From UHGV virus genome UHGV-0119342: a DNA stretch of 10,976 nucleotides, one strand, 5' to 3'. This stretch comes from a virus. Below, one piece after another: positions 1-10,976 of this stretch. Each line of letters begins with the position of its first letter. Within the stretch, counting starts at the first letter, position 1. The translations under genes and the position numbers were made by a program. The notes below the pieces were generated by a model. It did no database searches and was not told where the DNA came from. It worked only from the letters and a program-made list of their open reading frames with translations.

Positions 1-12
1 AGGAACAAACGC

Positions 13-61
13 TTAATCGCGGTTTACATCAGCGCGGCGTTAATCGGGTGATTTTCATCAG
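13..61. repeat. Imperfect tandem direct repeat upstream of the recombinase gene (ttaatcgcggtttacatcag at 13-32; ttaatcgggtgattttcatcag at 40-61)
   Basis: Two copies read directly, both starting with ttaatcg and ending with catcag, 27 bp apart; aatcgcg recurs at 93-99. Function not established. Confidence 0.4.
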
Positions 62-124: not shown

Positions 125-1528
125 ATGAAACGTGTAATCAGCTACATCAGATTCAGTTCTGAGCGACAAGCCAAAGGCGACTCACTACGCAGACAGTCTA
201 AGATGGTTAATGACTGGCTTAAGGCTCATCCTGAGTACTACCTTGACCAAGATTTATCCTTCCGTGATTTGGGGGTGAGTGGGTTCACTGGTAAGCACTT
301 GAAAGGTGGCTTAGGTGACTTTTTAACCGCTATCGAGAAAGGGCTTGTTAAAGCTGGTGATACGCTCTTGATAGAATCTCTTGACCGTCTGTCACGTCAA
401 GATGTAGACCAAGCAAGTGAGCTACTCAGAAACATTCTTCGCTCTGGTGTAGATGTGGTCACCTTGTCCGATGGTGAACATTACACACGAGAATCTCTTA
501 AAGACCCGTTAGCTCTGATTAAAAGCATTTTGATAATGCAGCGGTCGCATGAGGAAAGTTTGAGGAAGTCTGAGCGTATACAAGCTGCATGGGATGCAAA
601 GAAAGAAGCTGCTAAAGCCGGTATCAAGATTTCTAGGCGTTGTCCTGCATGGCTTAAGCTTAATGATGACCGTAAAAGCTTCTCTGTGATACCTGAGAAG
701 GTAGAAACTGTGAGGAGATGCTTTCAATTACGGTTAGAGGGTAAGTCTATCTGGGAGATTGTCCGGATTCTTAATGATGAAGGTCACCAGACACTTAACC
801 AGTACAAAGCAGGTAAGTTTGGTCAAACCTCAGTGCAAGACCTTCTGAAAAATCGCTCTGTAATTGGTTACTTCACACCTAAAGGCTGTGAGGAGATAGT
901 TGGTTATTTCCCCCCTATCATCCCTGAGACTGATTTCTACAAAGTCCAGCAACTATCATATTCTCGTTATGGAAGAAAGCCTGCTTCAGATAAACCATTG
1001 AGTGTGAATCTTTTCAAAGGTGTTATCCGTTGTTCTGAATGTGGTCATGCTCTGATTATCACAGGCTTTAGCGATACAAGAAGCGGTATATATCGCTGTC
1101 CTTCTCGAAATGAAAACCGTTGCAATGCCAAAGGGCTGTCACGTAAGCAAACCGATGGTACATTACTTGCCCTGCTATCCCGTATAGACCGATTTGATAG
1201 CGATATGACGAATACCATAGACACACTGAAGCTACACCGTGAACACATCTCAAGCAATATTGAAAAGCTGGTACAGCTATCACTTGAAATTGAAGACTTG
1301 TCCGCTATTACCAGCAAACTAAAACAGTTAAAAGGTGAGCTATCACAGGTTGATGCGGATATCGAGAAGGAGACACAACGCCTTAAATCTATTGATGTGG
1401 GGTGTTTGTCTGATTGTGACTTGACTACAAAGGCGGGAAGGATTGAAGCACAACTGATAATCAAAAGTGCTGTTAAAGAGGTCGTTTTGAATACTGCTAA
1501 ACGTCGATGTAACTTTTCACAACGGTAA
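125..1528 (+). CDS. Large serine recombinase (integrase/resolvase family)
   Basis: 467-aa ORF. N-terminal resolvase-type catalytic region (YIRFSSERQ with candidate catalytic Ser; LIESLDRLSRQ), Cys-rich zinc-ribbon-like segment (CSECGH...YRCPSRNENRC), C-terminal coiled-coil-like stretch. GGTGG about 8 nt upstream of ATG. Confidence 0.85.
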   Translation: MKRVISYIRFSSERQAKGDSLRRQSKMVNDWLKAHPEYYLDQDLSFRDLGVSGFTGKHLKGGLGDFLTAIEKGLVKAGDTLLIESLDRLSRQDVDQASELLRNILRSGVDVVTLSDGEHYTRESLKDPLALIKSILIMQRSHEESLRKSERIQAAWDAKKEAAKAGIKISRRCPAWLKLNDDRKSFSVIPEKVETVRRCFQLRLEGKSIWEIVRILNDEGHQTLNQYKAGKFGQTSVQDLLKNRSVIGYFTPKGCEEIVGYFPPIIPETDFYKVQQLSYSRYGRKPASDKPLSVNLFKGVIRCSECGHALIITGFSDTRSGIYRCPSRNENRCNAKGLSRKQTDGTLLALLSRIDRFDSDMTNTIDTLKLHREHISSNIEKLVQLSLEIEDLSAITSKLKQLKGELSQVDADIEKETQRLKSIDVGCLSDCDLTTKAGRIEAQLIIKSAVKEVVLNTAKRRCNFSQR

Positions 1529-1657: not shown

Positions 1658-2422
1658 TCAGTAGCGCTTGTTAGGATTCACAGAAAACTTCCGTAAAGCA
1701 TTACCCGACTTAAGCACCTTTGAAGCTTGCTCATTAGCTGAGGCTGTGAAGGTGCTCTCACCATTTTTAACGCTAACGCTCTTAGAGCACGTTACACGGG
1801 CTTTTAGCGCTTCATCTGATAACTCACTTGCCGAATAGCTAAAAAGCTCTTTACAGGTCAGCATAGGGCTTCCAAGGCTCGTTGTAGTGTTGCCAGTGTT
1901 CTTTTTACTGGTAGAACCGCCATCATTCGTGGTAGCGACCTTTCCAGTAGCTGCTGAAACATCAGTTTGCCCTACGATTGAACGAAATTCTACACCTTGG
2001 AAGGTCATCTGAATACGAAGACCATTAGCAATGGTATGCTCTTTACTCGCTTTAAACTGAGTAATGATACTATCAGTGATAGATATTCCATCTTTACAAA
2101 CAATAGTGATGATTTGCTTCTGGTCTCGCCATTGTTCAACCGTAGAAATAAAGGTCTCTACAAGTTGCCCCTGTCTGGTTAATAGAACTGAACCCGTCGA
2201 ATCAACCACTACAACACCGCTAATAGAGATGGTCTTAGGTGCTCTCTGAACATTATCAGTGATAGTTTGCCCCGATTGCATAGCCTGAGTTGTCACCATC
2301 ATCGGTGAGTCATAGTCCATCTGTTCAGTAGCTGTTAAGGCAAGAAAAGATTCTACATTATCTCTAAGGTGAAAATAGATACCATCTTTACCTGAGTATC
2401 TAATTTGCTTTGTGTCAAACAT
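1658..2422 (-). CDS. Hypothetical protein, possibly tail-associated (immediately downstream of the tape measure gene)
   Basis: 254-aa ORF, AGGA 9 nt upstream of ATG, Ser/Thr/Gly-rich C-terminal half. Functional guess from position only. Confidence 0.6.
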
Positions 2423-2441
2423 TGTTGTTATTCCTATTCTG

Positions 2442-2487
2442 TTAAGCGTGAGCTACGTGAAATCTAATTTTTGATGTTGGTATCTGC
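2442..2487 (-). promoter_or_regulatory. Conserved promoter-like element, copy A, about 20 nt upstream of the 254-aa gene start
   Basis: Minus-strand reading gcagataccaacatcaaaaattagatttcacgtagctcacgcttaa is about 70 percent identical to a 46-bp element upstream of the tape measure gene; contains a -10-like TAGATT after an A-tract, no canonical -35. Confidence 0.5.
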
Positions 2488-2553
2488 TCAGAAGAAATCA
2501 CGTAGCATTCGACTATTCATAGTTGAATCGTCATACTAGATAAAGATTAATAG

Positions 2554-2571
2554 ATTGCCATGTGTGGCAAT
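2554..2571 (-). terminator. Candidate hairpin 25 nt downstream of the tape measure stop
   Basis: Perfect 7-bp inverted repeat attgcca / tggcaat with 4-nt loop tgtg; AT-rich but not pure U tail on the minus strand. Weak terminator or attenuator. Confidence 0.3.
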
Positions 2572-2595
2572 AAATATTAGTAGTTCTAACATTGT

Positions 2596-4662
2596 TTATT
2601 CCTCTGGGTAAGCGGAGCTAATCAAGGTATCTTCCTGCATACGATTAATATGCGATGTGGTTCTTTCATCAATAACCTTTCCATCAAGTACCGTCTGAGT
2701 TGTGATATTGATTGTCTGAGGCTGAATATTTACTGACGGCTTGATAACCTTTAAATCTTGTGTGAATGTTTCCACTCGACCTTTCAGATTATTTAATGCT
2801 TCAGGTGAAAACTGTGGAACATCTTTTGATTTGCCATGAACCATAGCCCATAAAACAGCAGCTAAAGAGTTCATGTCACCAGTCAATGCTTGGTCTGTGG
2901 GTTCCACCTTTGACCTTACAACTTTGTCAATTGGATTATCTGACTTACTCATCTGACGTTCATAGAACGGTTTAACAATGGAGTTAATCACATCAGTTGC
3001 CATACCGACAATCATTACTTTGGTAATTGCATCAGCTACAGATAATTTTCCTTTACCACCTTCAACACTACCGGAACGTGAATTAATTCTTCCCGCTGCT
3101 GTATTTGCTACATTTCCAAGCATGGAAATAGCCCTAATTAAGTTCCAGATACCACCTACAGCACCAATACCAGACCTTACAGCGACAATACCAGCAAGTC
3201 CCTTTAATGCACTTAACAGGCCATTTGCGATACCATCAGCTACAGCTTTTTGAGTGTCATTTAATTCTCTGTAAGCAAGGGTCACTCTGTCAAAGAATCC
3301 CTGCACTCGGTAGCTAATCGTGGTTAAATCATCAATACCGTTTGACATGCTTTTCATCAGGTCGCCAAAATGTTCACCAAGATTTTTAGATTGACCACCT
3401 AGTGAATTAAGTAAATTAGTCAGTGACCTTGTAAAGTCTGTTAAACCTTCCTGTGAACCGTCGAACATTAAGGCCAGATTATTATTCCATGAATTAGAAA
3501 GGCGGCCTAACTGCGTCTGAGTAGAGTTAATAATCTTTTCCCATCCACCAGCTTTATCAATCATCCTTCCCATTTCAGCGGATACTTTAGGAAGAACATC
3601 TTTAGAAAGAACTTTACCGTTCTTCATAGCTGCATCTAATTGCTCGGTAGTCATCCCAAGGCTTCTGGCAAATAACTGGAAAGCACCTGCCATTCTGTCA
3701 CCTAATTGACCACGTAGCTCTTCAGCCTGAATCTTCCCTTTAGAAGCCATCTGCTCGAAAGCTTTCAGAATCCCGTTAATTTCATCAGTGCTTAAACCCA
3801 TTAGTCGGGATGTACCAATCACATTAGAAAATAAGGATTCTTTCTGGTCTGCATTCATATCACCAGCACCAGCGGAAAACTTAGCAAAGCTACTTAATGT
3901 TTCAATCTGGTCTACACCTGTATTATTAGCAAGATTCTTAACGAAGTCTGTAGCTCGTTTAGCGCCTTCATCGCCTAATACAAATTGTGCCGCTCGTTGT
4001 GATGCTTCTTTTTTCAGACCAATCTCCATAATCTTCCTATAAGCTTCTAAGGCTGTCTGAAAACTATAAATGGCTGTACCTGCTTTGATTGCACTTGTAG
4101 CTAATACATCTAAACCATTTGAAGCATTTTCACTGTGATTGTTTTTGCTGGTGGTCTTATTAAACTTAGAAAGTGTTTCACGTAGATTTTGATTTAACTT
4201 TGCTAACTCACGATTAAAAGCTTCGTTCCCAAGTGTCTTGGATTTACCGCTTAAGCTGTAATACTGGCTTCTAAAATACTTCTCAAGTAGAGGATTAAAG
4301 TCACGAAGCTTGCTCATATTCACGCTATGCGCTGCTGTGATTGCTCTGTTGCCGCTAATTCGTGGTTGCCTTGCTGCTTTAACAGTTTCTTCAACCTGAG
4401 TTTTGAACTTAAAGACCTTCGTAGATTTGGCTCTTTCCTCCAGCTTATTAAAAGTCTGGTTAATCTTCTTTTCCATATTCCCCAAAGAGGCTGTTAAATC
4501 CTTATCCATGCTCTTTGGGTTAACTTTAAATGCTCTATTCAAATTGCGTTCAATTCTTTGTGCTGACTGCAAAGCTGCCTTTTCAACTCTTTGCAGTCCC
4601 TTAATAACGTTTTCATTGAAGCCTAGCTCAACGATAAAACTATCAACTGTGAATTTGCTCAT
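2596..4662 (-). CDS. Phage tail tape measure protein
   Basis: 688-aa ORF. Coiled-coil-like N-terminal region, central segment resembling the conserved tape-measure domain (GKIQAEELRGQLGDRMAGAFQLFARSLGMTTEQLDAAMKNGKV), Gly-rich hydrophobic segments near the C-terminus. AGAGGTG 10 nt upstream of ATG. Confidence 0.8.
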   Translation of the reverse strand: MSKFTVDSFIVELGFNENVIKGLQRVEKAALQSAQRIERNLNRAFKVNPKSMDKDLTASLGNMEKKINQTFNKLEERAKSTKVFKFKTQVEETVKAARQPRISGNRAITAAHSVNMSKLRDFNPLLEKYFRSQYYSLSGKSKTLGNEAFNRELAKLNQNLRETLSKFNKTTSKNNHSENASNGLDVLATSAIKAGTAIYSFQTALEAYRKIMEIGLKKEASQRAAQFVLGDEGAKRATDFVKNLANNTGVDQIETLSSFAKFSAGAGDMNADQKESLFSNVIGTSRLMGLSTDEINGILKAFEQMASKGKIQAEELRGQLGDRMAGAFQLFARSLGMTTEQLDAAMKNGKVLSKDVLPKVSAEMGRMIDKAGGWEKIINSTQTQLGRLSNSWNNNLALMFDGSQEGLTDFTRSLTNLLNSLGGQSKNLGEHFGDLMKSMSNGIDDLTTISYRVQGFFDRVTLAYRELNDTQKAVADGIANGLLSALKGLAGIVAVRSGIGAVGGIWNLIRAISMLGNVANTAAGRINSRSGSVEGGKGKLSVADAITKVMIVGMATDVINSIVKPFYERQMSKSDNPIDKVVRSKVEPTDQALTGDMNSLAAVLWAMVHGKSKDVPQFSPEALNNLKGRVETFTQDLKVIKPSVNIQPQTINITTQTVLDGKVIDERTTSHINRMQEDTLISSAYPEE

Positions 4663-4679
4663 TCATATTTTTCACCTCT

Positions 4680-4725
4680 TTAAGCGTGTTGTACGTAAAT
4701 TCTATTTTTCAGTGTGGGTATTAGC
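4680..4725 (-). promoter_or_regulatory. Conserved promoter-like element, copy B, about 18 nt upstream of the tape measure start
   Basis: Minus-strand reading gctaatacccacactgaaaaatagaatttacgtacaacacgcttaa; -10-like TAGAAT after an A-tract; both copies end in CACGCTTAA just before the RBS. Confidence 0.5.
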
Positions 4726-4779
4726 TTTACAGATTTCATGAGGATAATTCTTATCCGAATCATCACGTAGCACACATAC

Positions 4780-4821
4780 AAAAAAAGGGAGAGCTACCGA
4801 TGTCACTCGATAATCTCTCCC
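4780..4821 (-). terminator. Rho-independent terminator (minus strand) between the 71-aa gene and the tape measure gene
   Basis: Perfect 7-bp GC-rich stem GGGAGAG / CTCTCCC (4787-4793 / 4815-4821), 21-nt loop, followed on the minus strand by a run of 7 U (4780-4786). Confidence 0.55.
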
Positions 4822-4871
4822 CGTACTATAGATTCGATAGAACCTATCTCATATACCCAACCAATTCTTTT

Positions 4872-5110: not shown

Positions 5111-5815
5111 TCAAACAGCCTTGCTAAATTCTCGTGGAACACTCAGAAAATCATTGAAGCTGATAATCTGTGCCAACTCTTGACGGTACTCCTTAGCCAG
5201 CGCTTGATGGTCACTAATCAGCTTAGCCAGTCTTGATTTCAGCAAATTAATCTCATTTTCTCTTGCTTTCATCAGTTTCTCTTTGGCAATTTCTTCAAGC
5301 TCAGCTTGTGATTTATCAGCAACAATTAGAGACAATCGATGTGGTGCTCTGACAGCTCTTTCCGTACGAATAACCCTTTGACCTTCTGGTAAATCTGCAA
5401 TCACTTTACCAATCTCTACAGGGTCATACCCCCAACCGTCACGGTCTAGTCGAGAGAAATAAGCATAAGAATTGGTTTGAAGCTCCATTAAAATAGCCAT
5501 TTCGTCAATTTCGTCTTCAAGCTTGGACTGAATTTTCTCGTAAACACTTCTCATTGCTTCTTGAGAGTCTTTAATAGCTTGGAAATATCGGCGTTGTAGC
5601 TTCAACTTCAAATCAAGTTCACAACTTTCGTTCATAGAAAAATCAATTTCAACTCTTGGAATCTCGAGTGGTTCTGGTGGAATATATGGACCTTTATTTA
5701 CTTCGTGTGATTCCCGCCAAGCTCTATCAAAAGATTCACGCAAAGTTAATTCGTGAATATCAAGTGCACTTGGTCGGCTTTCAATAATCATTTCATTTTC
5801 ATCACGGATAGCCAT
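5111..5815 (-). CDS. Hypothetical acidic protein with coiled-coil-like C-terminal half
   Basis: 234-aa ORF, AGAGGAAAGG 5 nt upstream of ATG; heptad-like helical C-terminal region. No recognisable catalytic motif. Confidence 0.65.
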   Translation of the reverse strand: MAIRDENEMIIESRPSALDIHELTLRESFDRAWRESHEVNKGPYIPPEPLEIPRVEIDFSMNESCELDLKLKLQRRYFQAIKDSQEAMRSVYEKIQSKLEDEIDEMAILMELQTNSYAYFSRLDRDGWGYDPVEIGKVIADLPEGQRVIRTERAVRAPHRLSLIVADKSQAELEEIAKEKLMKARENEINLLKSRLAKLISDHQALAKEYRQELAQIISFNDFLSVPREFSKAV

Positions 5816-6020
5816 TAATACCTTTCCTCTTCTAAGATAATTTATGTTTCAGTTTTTAAAAAGCACACCTGACATCCTCGAACTTAGAAGAGGCTTAAAA
5901 GGCGTTTGCCAAGTATGCTTTTTAAAAGCTGAAAAGGCCCTAGATAACTAAAACGCTATAAAGGGCTAAGGTGAAGAAATTAAAACATCTAAAGGATTCA
6001 ATAACGAATGAACAAGAGTA

Positions 6021-6184: not shown

Positions 6185-6462
6185 CAGCCTTTTAACAGAT
6201 TGGTAACATCAATTTCTATTTACTGTGTTGCCTACCCAGCAACCAACAAATAAGCCAAGCAACGTCCAAGCAATTATTAAGCCCATTAGTGAACCCTCAC
6301 AGAATCCGTAACCAAAATATTGTCGCCGTACAGGATTGTCACAGCACCTTTCAAAAATTGCTCTGGGGAAATACTGTATTTGTTCGTTTGCTCGATAACC
6401 AATCTTTTCATGTCGCTGTCTGCAATTGGTAGCATCATTCGAGGCTCGTTAAACTCCACCGA

Positions 6463-6609
6463 CTAAATAAAGTCAGAGATGTTTTCTGCATTATCAGCCA
6501 TCAGCTTTAGTAATTTATCAAAATTAATTGCGATACCTGCATCACTGAAAGCCTGAATCATCAGAGCGGTGTCGTTATCAACGAAAATCTGTAATTCGTA
6601 ATTGCTCAT
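6463..6609 (-). CDS. Small acidic hypothetical protein (48 aa, not in the supplied ORF track)
   Basis: Hand translation MSNYELQIFVDNDTALMIQAFSDAGIAINFDKLLKLMADNAENISDFI; AAGGAG 9 nt upstream of ATG. Confidence 0.4.
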   Translation of the reverse strand: MSNYELQIFVDNDTALMIQAFSDAGIAINFDKLLKLMADNAENISDFI

Positions 6610-6764
6610 TTTTAAAATCTCCTTTTTACCAGACCTCCTCAATCGCTCTGTAACGAGCTAAACAGTCTTTTTCAGGGGTAGCCTGTACAGTGGTATTACC
6701 CACCCTAAAATAAGATAGTTTTTTGCGTTAGAATGCGATTGAGAGCGTCTGAGAAGCTGTTTTT

Positions 6765-7052
6765 CTAATTTCTCTTAAAGTCTCGGACTTGCATAAGATT
6801 TTTTGGTCTGGTATCGGCTCTGTTACCATTTCGATGGATAATTTGCTTATTGGATTGATAGCCATGATAAAGGAACCAGACAACATATTTCACGTAGAAA
6901 GTATATCGGCCTATATTAAATGTTTTGTTGCCGTAGTCGTCGGTATTTATCGTGACTGACTCTCCATCAGACCAGCACAGGGAATCACTGGATTCATCAT
7001 AGATAAGGTGTTCTGTAAAATATCGTCTAACATCTTCATGCCAAGGTTTCAT
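6765..7052 (-). CDS. Truncated HNH-like protein, paralogue of the N-terminal part of the 9540-10064 endonuclease
   Basis: 95-aa ORF, GAGGAGG 4 nt upstream of ATG. Shares KPWHEDVRRY with KAWPEEVIRY and VVWFLYHG...IIHRNGNRADTRPKNL with VIFYLYHG...IDHIDGDPLNNAISNL, but ends before the final HNH Asn and has no AP2 domain. Confidence 0.65.
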   Translation of the reverse strand: MKPWHEDVRRYFTEHLIYDESSDSLCWSDGESVTINTDDYGNKTFNIGRYTFYVKYVVWFLYHGYQSNKQIIHRNGNRADTRPKNLMQVRDFKRN

Positions 7053-8100: not shown

Positions 8101-8151
8101 TCATGTTCTGACCCTCATAAGATGTTATTATTCTGTTAACTTATATATACA

Positions 8152-8180
8152 ATCTTAGCAGTTTCAAAGACTAATGTCAA
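8152..8180 (-). promoter_or_regulatory. Candidate sigma70-type promoter for the leftward operon
   Basis: Minus-strand -35 TTGACA (8175-8180), 17-bp spacer, -10 TAAGAT (8152-8157); back-to-back with the plus-strand promoter. Confidence 0.3.
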
Positions 8181-8187
8181 GCATTTT

Positions 8188-8217
8188 TTAACATTTCATT
8201 AACATCTGTGGTATAAT
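8188..8217 (+). promoter_or_regulatory. Candidate strong sigma70-type promoter with extended -10
   Basis: -35 TTAACA (8188-8193), 18-bp spacer, TGg + TATAAT (8209-8217); points toward the small ORF at 8348. Confidence 0.5.
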
Positions 8218-8347
8218 GGTTTTATGAGAGAGGGAAAATATAAAGGCGTGGCTATGAGGTTTATTCGATAGGGGTTGGTACAAGCCCAACTAACCGAATC
8301 AACTATGTATTTGGTCACATGGTATTGCATTGCACACAGGAAATTTA

Positions 8348-8570: not shown

Positions 8571-9453
8571 GCATTTTGTGCTATCTATTAAAAAATAGCT
8601 TGACAGAACAGGAAAGCTGTATCTATCAAGTATTCACCTCTCTGACAGTAATTTCTAAAAGTTCTTATTTTTCAATAAGTTGTAATTAGCCAATATATAA
8701 GGCTGTCCAGTACCTTCACAGAAAAACTTCAGAAGCCTTCTTAATCAATCCACTAAGCGAGAGAGAGCGATAACCCCAGAGAGGGAAGCTCCCTTCTTAA
8801 AAACCTTCTTGACAATCTTTACAGGCCTTGTTCAAGGTAATCGCAATAGTTTTTCTTCCCTCGGTTTCCCGTGTTCCTCGGTTTGCCTATTGAGGTTTGA
8901 AAGACCTCTGTAACTTCCCTCTTAGACAGGGAAGAATAATATTGGTGACACAAGCGAAGCGCCCCTCTAAAAAGATTTTTTAGCTATTTTGTTTAAAAGC
9001 ACATCAAACGATACATTTTATTGATTTAGGTCAAAGACAAAAGCATTGACAAAATGGTAAGATTGTTCACATGACCTTACTTAACAGATTCTTAAGAGCT
9101 TTGAAGCGGCCTATTTAACAAGGTCACTACCTCTGGTCTTATCGTTCCCTCTCTTCTTGGTAGTTCTGTTAAGTATCTTTTCAGGTATCTCTTACAGTCA
9201 CTGTTAAGATGATACTCTCCCTTCGGGTTATATCGTTACTTTCTCTCCCGTTAAACACTCCTTCCTAACTATCTACATAATCACTTCTAAGAATCTTACA
9301 AGGTAATATCCAGACCTCTTATAGCTGACCTGATACAGAAACATTACAGGCATACTCTCTAGGTTCTGTGTAGTTCCCTTGGTGGGAATAGATGCTCCTA
9401 CAATAAGAGCATCATTAATCTATATAGTCCTCTTCCGAGAACTTAATAGTTTT

Positions 9454-9539: not shown

Positions 9540-10064
9540 ATGGTGACTAGGTATACCAAGGCATGGCCTGAAGAAGTTATAAGATACATCAATGAAAATA
9601 TTACAGCAGATTTTGAATCTGGAACATTATTTAGAAATGGTGTAAAAATCGAGGGTTCACTTGTAAATCCTAAACCAAGACAATATCTGGCTTTTGGTTG
9701 TCGGATTAATGGTAAGTTCAGAATACTTAAGGTGCATCAGGTTATTTTCTATCTATATCATGGTAAACAAGCTAAACTATGGATTGACCATATAGATGGT
9801 GACCCGCTAAATAATGCTATTAGCAATCTTCGCGAGGTTACCAAAGAGCAGAATCAGGCAAACATGATACCCAGAAAGAAAACAAAATCAGGTTACAAGG
9901 GAGTACACCCAAGAGTGGATAACAAGGGGTTCTGGGCTACAATACGCTGTAATGGAAAATCTCATTATCTGGGTCAGTTTAATACAGCAGAAGAAGCTGC
10001 AAAAGCCTATGATGCTGCATCACTGGAATTGCATGGTAAATATGGACACAGGAATTTTAGCTGA
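9540..10064 (+). CDS. Free-standing homing endonuclease, NUMOD4-like N-terminus + HNH nuclease + AP2 DNA-binding domain
   Basis: 174-aa ORF, AAGGA 5 nt upstream of ATG. HNH motif VHQVIFYLYHG...IDHIDGDPLNNAISNLREVTKEQNQAN; AP2-like C-terminus YKGVHPRVDNKGFWATIRCNGKSHYLGQFNTAEEAAKAYDAAS. Confidence 0.85.
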   Translation: MVTRYTKAWPEEVIRYINENITADFESGTLFRNGVKIEGSLVNPKPRQYLAFGCRINGKFRILKVHQVIFYLYHGKQAKLWIDHIDGDPLNNAISNLREVTKEQNQANMIPRKKTKSGYKGVHPRVDNKGFWATIRCNGKSHYLGQFNTAEEAAKAYDAASLELHGKYGHRNFS

Positions 10065-10104: not shown

Positions 10105-10896
10105 ATTAAAGTTTATACAGTGATTTTTCATCTTCTAATTTTTTTATAAAAATCGTAGTACCCCCTCTACATTCCCCTTCACCGATAATCTTAAAAAATA
10201 TCTACACTCAATTGATGGCTGTTAAGTACCCCAGATTCACGATATAGCACCCCCTTTGCAAAAGCAGTTAAAATATCTATAACCAATTATTGACTTTCTT
10301 CATAGCATCTGTTTACCTCCACCTCAAAAAAACCTTCATCACATTTCACAGCATCTATCAAGAAGATTTAACCTATCAATAGCTGTAACATTTTATAGTC
10401 CTGTGAAGTCCTCCCCAGTTTTCTCTGTAACAGACACAAACTTCTGTGACCTTATGTGTCAATGACTTATAAGACATGCTCTCAAGGTGCTGTATAGCCT
10501 CTTATCTTCCAATACATAAAACTCTTATAAATCAGTACTGATATGTATACAGTTCGTTTTTAACATAATAGCTGTTTTACGCACTAAGAAGCATCTACGT
10601 AGATTCTGTATAGAGATTAAGATGTCTCTAAGTGATTTTTTAAGAGGAGATACGAAGGAACTATAACCATCACTTCATAACTTTCACGTAGGTAGCTATT
10701 AAGTAGGTTGATAGTCACTTTGAGGGAATATTGATAGTGACCAACTGCATAGACACCGTTATATAGCCCTGTATATAGCACTATATGTAGTGTCTGGAGA
10801 GGAACGACTAACACGATACAGTTTACCCTGAAAAGAGACTTCACAGATTCTCTATATATTTCAATAAGTTATGATAAAAAGAGACTATATCAATAC

Positions 10897-10955
10897 TGCA
10901 TAGAATCTGTGTAGGATTGCATAGATACTTGGAAAAATGCCTTTAAATTGCATAG
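10897..10955. repeat. Helically phased TGyrTAG repeats (iteron-like or operator-array-like)
   Basis: TGCATAG at 10897, TGTGTAG at 10908, TGCATAG at 10918 and TGCATAG at 10949; spacings 11, 10 and 31 bp. The last two copies sit in a longer direct repeat ATTGCATAG(A/G)TAC. Confidence 0.45.
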
Positions 10956-10976
10956 GTACTAACCTGTTTATGTCCT

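Follow-up and report, generated by a model that had tools for sequence, protein, structure and literature searches.

A conserved candidate promoter-operator module upstream of tail genes in a satellite-like chromosomal island of Escherichia coli

The promoters Psid and PLL of P4 and the late promoters of P2 are read by the host RNA polymerase, possess a -10 hexamer without a functional -35 element and depend on a small activator (Delta or Ogr) bound at an upstream dyad, TGT-N12-ACA, which is centred near -55. Late promoters of the T4 type carry TATAAATA at -10. In the satellites known as Staphylococcus aureus pathogenicity islands (SaPI) and phage-inducible chromosomal islands (PICI) as well as in temperate phages, an operator over the transcription start combined with an inverted upstream motif is the usual geometry of cooperative repression. 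According to passages on the PICI-like elements (PLE) of Vibrio cholerae, whose helper is ICP1, their transcription is temporally licensed by the stages of the helper programme (PMC13060381; PMC10055350). For E. coli, passages of Barth, Nguyen and Seed (2023) and of related texts describe putative satellites of ~13 kb flanked by attachment (att) sites (lqad076; PMC10448857; PMC10055350); these contain tape measure and baseplate-hub genes, lack most tail genes, possess in a subset a serine recombinase, and were matched to phages Inny, Muut and Mt1B1_P17 (PMC10448857). Here we describe an element that is duplicated in UHGV-0119342, a DNA stretch of 10,976 nt listed as a virus genome (the whole stretch is hereafter called the window), where its copies precede a gene for a Dit-like baseplate protein (copy 1) and a tape measure gene (copy 2). 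This element, which we designated as the module, is almost certainly a conserved functional cis-element and, judged by its sequence, on balance probably a factor-dependent promoter-operator.

Scored without gaps on the minus strand (2488-2442 against 4726-4680), the two copies are identical at 35 of 47 positions (74%) and have the same orientation. They form the top-scoring direct 47-mer pair of the whole window, whereas the best pairs in 40 first-order Markov resamples of the window scored 29-32 out of 47. The original prediction had placed two copies here, with ATACCnACA, an A-tract, TAGA(A)TT, ACGTA and CACGCTTAA as shared blocks and without a canonical -35. All this was borne out: every block is present, and a consensus scan detects a sigma-70 promoter at neither copy. 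The predicted 46-bp unit is a real repeat, but its boundaries had been drawn too narrowly, as a 9-bp arm further upstream (GCTACGTGA) belongs to the element too. Similarly, the equal distance from the start codons holds in the window (19 nt to the ATG at 2422 and 17 nt to the ATG at 4662) but is not kept in relatives, many of which have a leader of ~85 nt. A chance likeness of two AT-rich regions upstream of genes could be imagined for a pair with an identity of just 74% over 47 nt, located in AT-rich DNA with shared ribosome-binding-site-like features; it is virtually excluded by the resampling, since the pair beats all 40 resamples, and by the alignment across islands, the comparison with the related locus L005 and the survey of E. 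coli genomes (see below), in which the module is kept in islands of E. coli, E. albertii, Citrobacter and Shigella above the level of the adjacent genes.

The full unit is a module of ~66 bp on the minus strand (Table 1). Its common form, GCTACGTGA-N37-T(C/T)ACGTAGC-TCACGCTTAAC(AGA), was drawn from the related E. coli, E. albertii, Citrobacter and Shigella islands and 13 IMG/VR contigs, and its core can be written as TAnnnT-TCACGTAG. The distal arm GCTACGTGA is found upstream of both copies and is in copy 1 the exact inverted repeat of the proximal arm TCACGTAGC. Copy 2 of the window is a damaged version, with a 27-nt insertion (tgattcggataagaattatcctcatga, with TGA on either side) and three changes in the proximal arm. 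This insertion is missing from the otherwise near-identical copies L014a, L019a and L022b, and intact tape measure copies without it are present in L012, L014, L016, L018, L019 and L022. A third, diverged copy lies on the plus strand in DNA poor in open reading frames (ORFs). Its identity to copy 1, at 29 of 47 positions, would by itself not exceed chance. Yet the divergent islands L005 and L018 have retained this copy, and TAnnnT keeps its register there, although the L018 version has no distal arm. The arm sequence is clearly enriched: the window contains 9 matches to TCACGTAGC when one mismatch is allowed (1.3 expected; reached in 0 of 200 shuffles), its three exact copies are all located at modules and none is found in 29 kb of host flank, and for TANNNTTYACGTA the island locus has three occurrences where 0.08 would be expected. 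The arm is conserved as a sequence, beyond the mere ability to pair. Downstream of the third copy, 210 nt (10746-10956) hold four TGCATAGR sites, all on one strand, in an iteron-like array (0.8 expected; 2 of 200 shuffles reach four).

The 69-nt module was detected in 428 of 5,426 complete E. coli genomes (~8%, O157:H7 included) at 527 places, all of them chromosomal. Among the matches listed (25), it always lies in unannotated DNA, and it is intergenic in every inspected copy. Between the window and L005, the module is 85.5% identical at the nucleotide level, as opposed to 67.5% for the Dit-like gene, 57.8% for the tape measure gene and 49% for the last 300 nt of the latter. In the most distant islands, blastn aligns positions 2438-2517 of the window alone, without adjacent coding DNA. 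The similarity is therefore kept at homologous loci, and the module, a compact and well-delimited cis-element, is better conserved there than the genes that flank it. All islands examined have it in front of the Dit-like gene, including the island of O157:H7 and all those found independently of the motif (L007 and L008 through proteins, L023 and L024 through a coding-DNA match). The tape measure copy, a secondary duplication, is optional; L005, L006, L023 and L024 have none, and there the ribosome-binding site directly follows the terminator. In many islands, the leader of the Dit-like gene contains a 9-bp hairpin, CAAAGGCTT...AAGCCTTTG followed by AAATCAAAGGAG, whose 3' arm CCTTTG could pair instead with the Shine-Dalgarno sequence; translational control of this gene through the hairpin is possible.

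The pattern of invariant and variable positions is what points to a promoter. Our alignment (A1) comprises 26 module copies, 21 of them distinct, part of which were gathered with patterns that fixed the ACGTA...GCTTAA positions but not those of TAnnnT. In the 21 distinct copies, T61, A62 and T66 are invariant and positions 63-65 vary (TAGATT, TAGAAT, TATTTT, TAGTTT); the invariant bases correspond to T-12, A-11 and T-7 of the sigma-70 -10 hexamer. An A-tract precedes the hexamer, and the corresponding bases of the third copy are TAACTT or TAATAT. The -35 region, in contrast, exists in 3-4 unrelated variants that are shuffled between the two gene positions in different islands, and the aligned copies have no TG extension of the -10, with A occupying -15/-14. 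The promoter without a -35 that had originally been suggested fits these comparative data (TAnnnT invariant, -35 region variable); the activator or phage-specific factor suggested along with it is still a putative one. By geometry alone, transcription would start near 2454, 4692 and 10690, at the A of ACGTA, which puts the proximal arm at -6 to +3, the distal arm at -52 to -44 and CACGCTTAAC at +5 to +14. Sites for CRP, IHF, DnaA, LexA, sigma-E, sigma-28, sigma-54 and T4 late transcription were looked for by eye, and none fits.

We infer that the module fires as a promoter of the sigma-70-type host RNA polymerase, with TAnnnT as a -10 hexamer preceded by the A-tract, and that it would drive the tail genes of the island (Dit-like and tape measure). 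As it has no usable -35, this promoter is probably weak by itself. Its activity would be set by a sequence-specific DNA-binding factor through TCACGTAGC, located at the predicted start and, inverted, ~46 bp upstream; both arms would then be protein-binding sites, and the factor may also recognise the conserved block at +5 to +17. The arm over the start site suggests repression, and the lacking -35 suggests activation. The putative factor could be provided by the island, by the host or by an infecting helper phage of the Felix O1 type, to which the island may be linked (see below). The tail genes would thus be under their own control, apart from the other operons of the island, which have constitutive-looking, near-consensus sigma-70 promoters at 8188-8217 (plus strand), 8180-8152 and 6184-6156 (both minus strand). 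The near-consensus promoters are TG-extended, those at 8152-8217 form a divergent pair, and the one at 6184-6156 is located ~340 nt upstream of the gene for a 234-aa protein; between the two lies a 28-nt inverted repeat (5847-5934; 86% complementary).

Several points weigh against a factor-dependent promoter-operator. The invariance at ACGTA...GCTTAA is partly a matter of ascertainment, and the consensus scan is silent at copies 1 and 2. Without a -35 and a TG extension, promoter function would hang entirely on the putative factor; Pfam, PHROG, NCBIfam and PDB sequence searches gave no credible DNA-binding assignment for the island proteins, and the AlphaFold single-sequence model of the 71-aa protein was unusable (predicted local distance difference test score, pLDDT, of 55). 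In copy 2, three of the nine positions of the proximal arm are changed and the distal arm is displaced by 27 nt; the alternatives are that the arms can be dispensed with or that the copy is impaired. Furthermore, the 46-bp spacing of the arms is a non-integral number of helical turns, and in many islands the tape measure gene stands without any module. The gene with HNH and AP2 matches is unlikely to encode a regulator, since it is not conserved among the module-bearing islands. An att-like site of the serine recombinase or an invertible promoter was rejected as well: the arm motif is absent from the island ends, and all 26 copies have the same internal orientation.

Among the described promoters, the module is comparable, as far as can be judged from its sequence, to the satellite/helper morphogenetic-gene type of P2 and P4 or to an operator-controlled promoter of satellites. 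However, TGT-N12-ACA was not found in it, and the region from -60 to -44 of the aligned copies holds GCTACGTGA. Family searches detected no Ogr/Delta zinc finger among the island ORFs (the 71-aa protein has two cysteines), and the module arm, unlike the P2/P4 dyad, overlaps the predicted start, which is more operator-like. In place of the TATAAATA of T4-type late promoters, the copies read TAGATT, TAGAAT, TATTTT, TAGTTT or TAACTT. With the repressor-controlled promoters of the SaPI/PICI type, the module shares a motif over -10/+1 with an inverted upstream repeat. Nevertheless, no repressor was found here, the arm motif is missing from the region of the divergent canonical promoters (8150-8220), the expected site of action of a master repressor, and the core promoter looks too weak for derepression alone.

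The same arms could act at the RNA level, pairing in read-through transcripts, with the 3' block in the 5' untranslated region, as an element of processing or stability or as a translational operator. They can form a stem of 9-11 bp (-13 to -18 kcal/mol, z = -2.8 to -3.9), two positions of the stem extension are changed on both sides between variant classes, and the block at +5 to +17, which abuts the ribosome-binding site in the tape measure copies, would be part of the mRNA if the predicted start is right. We consider this explanation unlikely, however. The stem closes an unstructured loop of 33-37 nt. Its nine core pairs are almost invariant, without compensatory changes, and because they hardly vary no covariation can come from them; the covariation score was met by 15 of 500 shuffles, which is inside the false-positive range stated for the tool, and the extension signal is weak. 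Searches returned no Rfam match and no tRNA. Moreover, the third copy of L018 lacks the distal arm, copy 2 of the window has it displaced by 27 nt, and a transcript started by a promoter at the proximal arm would leave out the distal arm.

The blocks flanking the tape measure gene could also be conserved as a recombination boundary, i.e. as homology arms for cassette swaps between islands. In the window, two direct copies bracket this gene exactly, the tape measure proteins have an amino acid identity of 43% between islands whose neighbouring genes are conserved (97% for the 234-aa protein), and the -35-region variants are shuffled between the two positions. Such a role is nonetheless very unlikely. 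The second copy is found in a subset of islands only, the third copy has nothing to do with the tape measure gene, and the pattern of invariant and variable positions (TAnnnT, arms) is unlike that of neutral homology arms; recombination at the blocks may be a by-product of their conservation.

The original prediction had also placed a terminator-like hairpin in front of each copy. This is right for copy 2, which is preceded by a strong intrinsic terminator (-22.7 kcal/mol, z = -4.16) that is kept in islands with and without the module and insulates the tape measure gene from the upstream operon. It does not hold for copy 1, where the small hairpin has no U tract and is unconvincing as a terminator. 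A simple terminator scan calls neither hairpin; the terminator before copy 2 is missed because its loop is long. As the small hairpin is absent in most related islands (L005, L006, L008, L023, L024), the proposed modular terminator-promoter-gene layout is not conserved at copy 1. A weak promoter-like site, ATGAGA-16-TATAGT, is located at 4825-4852 directly upstream of the terminator, in promoter-then-terminator order; L018 has a second copy of its sequence, TATGAGATAGGTTCTATCGAATCTATA, after the terminator (3195-3240), and L005 and L006 have a deletion of it.

Table 1. Features of the module copies and of the island (window numbering, unless another locus is named)
Feature	Position	Strand	Remarks
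Module copy 1	2438..2506	-	Upstream of Dit-like baseplate gene; reads GCTACGTGA-N37-TCACGTAGC-TCACGCTTAACAGA
Copy 1, distal arm	2498-2506	-	
Copy 1, block ATACCAACA	2475-2483	-	A-tract then follows
Copy 1, putative -10 TAGATT	2461-2466	-	
Copy 1, proximal arm	2452-2460	-	Overlaps predicted start near 2454
Copy 1, conserved 3' block	2438-2451	-	
Module copy 2	4676..4771	-	Upstream of tape measure gene
Copy 2, distal arm	4763-4771	-	
Copy 2, 27-nt insertion	4736-4762	-	Contains palindrome GGATAAgaaTTATCC
Copy 2, block ATACCCACA	4713-4721	-	
Copy 2, putative -10 TAGAAT	4699-4704	-	
Copy 2, degenerate proximal arm TTACGTACA	4690-4698	-	
Copy 2, block CACGCTTAA	4680-4688	-	Runs directly into ribosome-binding site AGAGGTG
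Third, diverged copy	10656-10702	+	ORF-poor DNA; reads ...ATAACCATCAC...TAACTT-TCACGTAGG...TTAA
Third copy, putative -10	10678-10683	+	
Third copy, arm	10684-10692	+	
Host yecE (DUF72) 5' fragment	1..53	+	
Serine recombinase gene	125-1528		467 aa
Dit-like tail/baseplate gene	1658..2422	-	254 aa; Pfam PF21821 Dit_like, E = 3.5e-17; PHROG 3721; served by copy 1
Tape measure gene	2596..4662	-	688 aa; PHROG 4036 and others; served by copy 2
Small hairpin ATTGCCA-CACA-TGGCAAT	2554..2571	-	After tape measure stop codon
Strong intrinsic terminator	4779..4822	-	GGGGAGAG...CTCTCCC then U7; after 71-aa gene, before copy 2
CTGTTAAG sites	9080-9088	-	
	9166-9173	+	
	9201-9208	+	
	10219-10226	+	
	2439-2446	+	
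Dit-leader hairpin	L005 8930-9000		
	L006 8930-9000		
	L007 1925-1995		
	L023 4610-4680		
	L024 4610-4680		

The copies do not sit in a late region of a phage. The window represents the left 11 kb of an 11.9-kb island in E. coli yecE rather than a phage, and it matches E. coli chromosomes from end to end. In NZ_CP098217.1, yecE (DUF72), located between yecD and yecN, is split by an insertion of 11,874 bp, and the window starts 53 nt inside this gene. One stretch of the window, presumably 1-53, is matched at an identity of at least 99% in most of 5,420 E. coli genomes. Positions 5-16, for which the tail of a third copy had been suggested, are therefore host coding DNA. At the island ends, an inverted repeat (TAAATACACC / GGTGTATTTA) is located a few bases inside the yecE junctions (69-78 of the window; 26911-26920 of L002), as expected for the arms of a serine-recombinase attachment site.

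The island encodes a large serine recombinase, the Dit-like and tape measure proteins, conserved proteins of 71 and 234 aa and two HNH-type proteins; the rest consists of a few small ORFs and ~2.3 kb of ORF-poor DNA. Pfam and PHROG searches of its ORFs revealed no recognisable capsid, terminase or further tail genes. A large serine recombinase, an interrupted yecE and a set of recognisable virion genes confined to tape measure and Dit-like fit a satellite, and we regard the island as a putative satellite of Ounavirinae phages. Its proteins are sharply mosaic between the window and L005, with amino acid identities of 97% for the 234-aa protein (5111-5815 against 11551-12255 in L005), 67% for the Dit-like, 46% for the 71-aa and 43% for the tape measure protein. 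At ~1511, L002 and L005 have 5 nt (GTAAA) more than the window. Their absence from the window shifts the reading frame, so that the recombinase ORF stops at 1528 and not at 1648 (467 aa versus 507 aa); the cause is a genuine inactivating slip or else an error of sequencing. Positions 6286-6642 hold a pseudogene of a 107-aa protein that is conserved in other islands, split by an internal stop into ORFs of 57 and 59 aa. The two HNH_3 genes (6765-7052 and 9540-10064, one with a sub-threshold AP2 match) look like homing-endonuclease insertions and not like core regulators: neither L005 nor L006 has an annotated counterpart of the HNH+AP2 gene (9540-10064), and L005 also lacks the short one (6765-7052).

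Three features connect this island with the virulent Felix O1-type phages, and the whole family looks like a satellite of them. First, the Dit-like gene is 73-74.5% identical at the nucleotide level (64% at the amino acid level) to the Felixounavirus gene directly after the tape measure gene. Second, the best phage relatives of the tape measure protein are Felixounavirus tape measure proteins (~29-30% amino acid identity over the full length). Third, 45 phage records contain non-coding DNA that is 80-93% identical to a 55-65-nt stretch of the ORF-poor DNA (9115-9181); those among the matches listed are all Felix O1-type phages. In Citrobacter phage vB_CbrM_HP1, whose record has two matching places, the match lies inside the annotated 570-bp terminal repeat; the stretch may be a packaging or terminal-repeat signal of the helper type carried by the island. 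In addition, the 8-mer CTGTTAAG occurs eight times in the island and is absent from 29 kb of host flank (1.0 expected). One of its copies is the reverse complement of the module block CTTAACAG, which is a non-universal block. In the Felixounavirus JohannRWettstein (L004, 26484-26876), CTGTTAAG forms an array of six copies in the same orientation within 400 bp of a 1.6-kb non-coding region, among CTTGTTAG-type iterons with a period of 11 nt.

It would be consistent with such a connection if the module mimicked a middle or late promoter of a Felix O1-type phage and were read by a transcription factor of the helper. This idea can draw on the Dit-like gene (74% nucleotide identity to its Ounavirinae counterpart), the homologous tape measure gene, the 55-65-nt match in the Ounavirinae terminal-repeat region, the common CTGTTAAG motif and the rule known from P2/P4, where promoters lacking a -35 are activated by a helper-encoded activator. 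It is, however, decidedly unlikely, as the promoter itself could not be traced in phages. The original prediction had pointed to the late genes of related phages as the place to look for the element, but when a 101-nt query spanning the module was compared by blastn with 50,697 phage records, nothing matched even at E <= 1. IMG/VR contigs with several matches to the core pattern are island loci only, the 28 others having single, chance-level matches. A search of the complete genome of JohannRWettstein with four patterns showed arm motif and core to be no more frequent than expected by chance, and the module does not resemble the intergenic repeats in the early region of this phage or the DNA preceding the late operon.

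As a type, a factor-dependent promoter-operator, the module itself is an ordinary kind of element, and the value of the finding lies mainly in the island to which it belongs. If the module is a regulated tail-gene promoter, the 69-bp fragment would offer a handle on helper-triggered activation of the island and on the putative factor. A bolder proposal, conceivable though doubtful, is that TAnnnT-TCACGTAGC acts as a helper-sensing switch through which infection by a Felix O1-type phage turns on the satellite tape measure and Dit-like genes, so that the helper tail would be remodelled or poisoned; the island, with its helper-type terminal-repeat and iteron-like sequences, would then represent a class of E. 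coli satellites, as yet undescribed, whose helpers are lytic Ounavirinae. Our literature search found no paper that ties satellites to Felix O1-type phages.

Among the described satellites, PLE share with this island the small size, the chromosomal location, a large serine recombinase, mostly unassigned ORFs, ORF-poor repeats and the link to a virulent myovirus. However, there is no detectable sequence relationship, and no genes for tape measure or Dit proteins are reported in the PLE passages at hand. As for the putative satellites that Barth et al. described in E. coli, they contain, according to the passages at hand, genes for a major capsid protein, a decoration protein and RepA_N, none of which was detected by Pfam, PHROG and NCBIfam searches in the window ORFs or in the last gene of the island; the related island L005 encodes a 322-aa protein with no more than a weak HTH_36 match. 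Their helper Muut belongs to Justusliebigvirus, whereas the island points to Ounavirinae, and three accessions carrying the island family are absent from the supplementary tables of Barth et al. Identity with these satellites is thus unsupported. The passages of that work at hand describe no promoter module.

The island family is also found in yecE of the O157:H7 strain Rafaela_II (L054). The O157:H7 yecE island may be a candidate for SpLE2, the 16-gene 'prophage-like element' of strain Sakai. Of the 16 SpLE2 genes, a single one responded to SOS induction in an RNA-seq study (PMC5931665).

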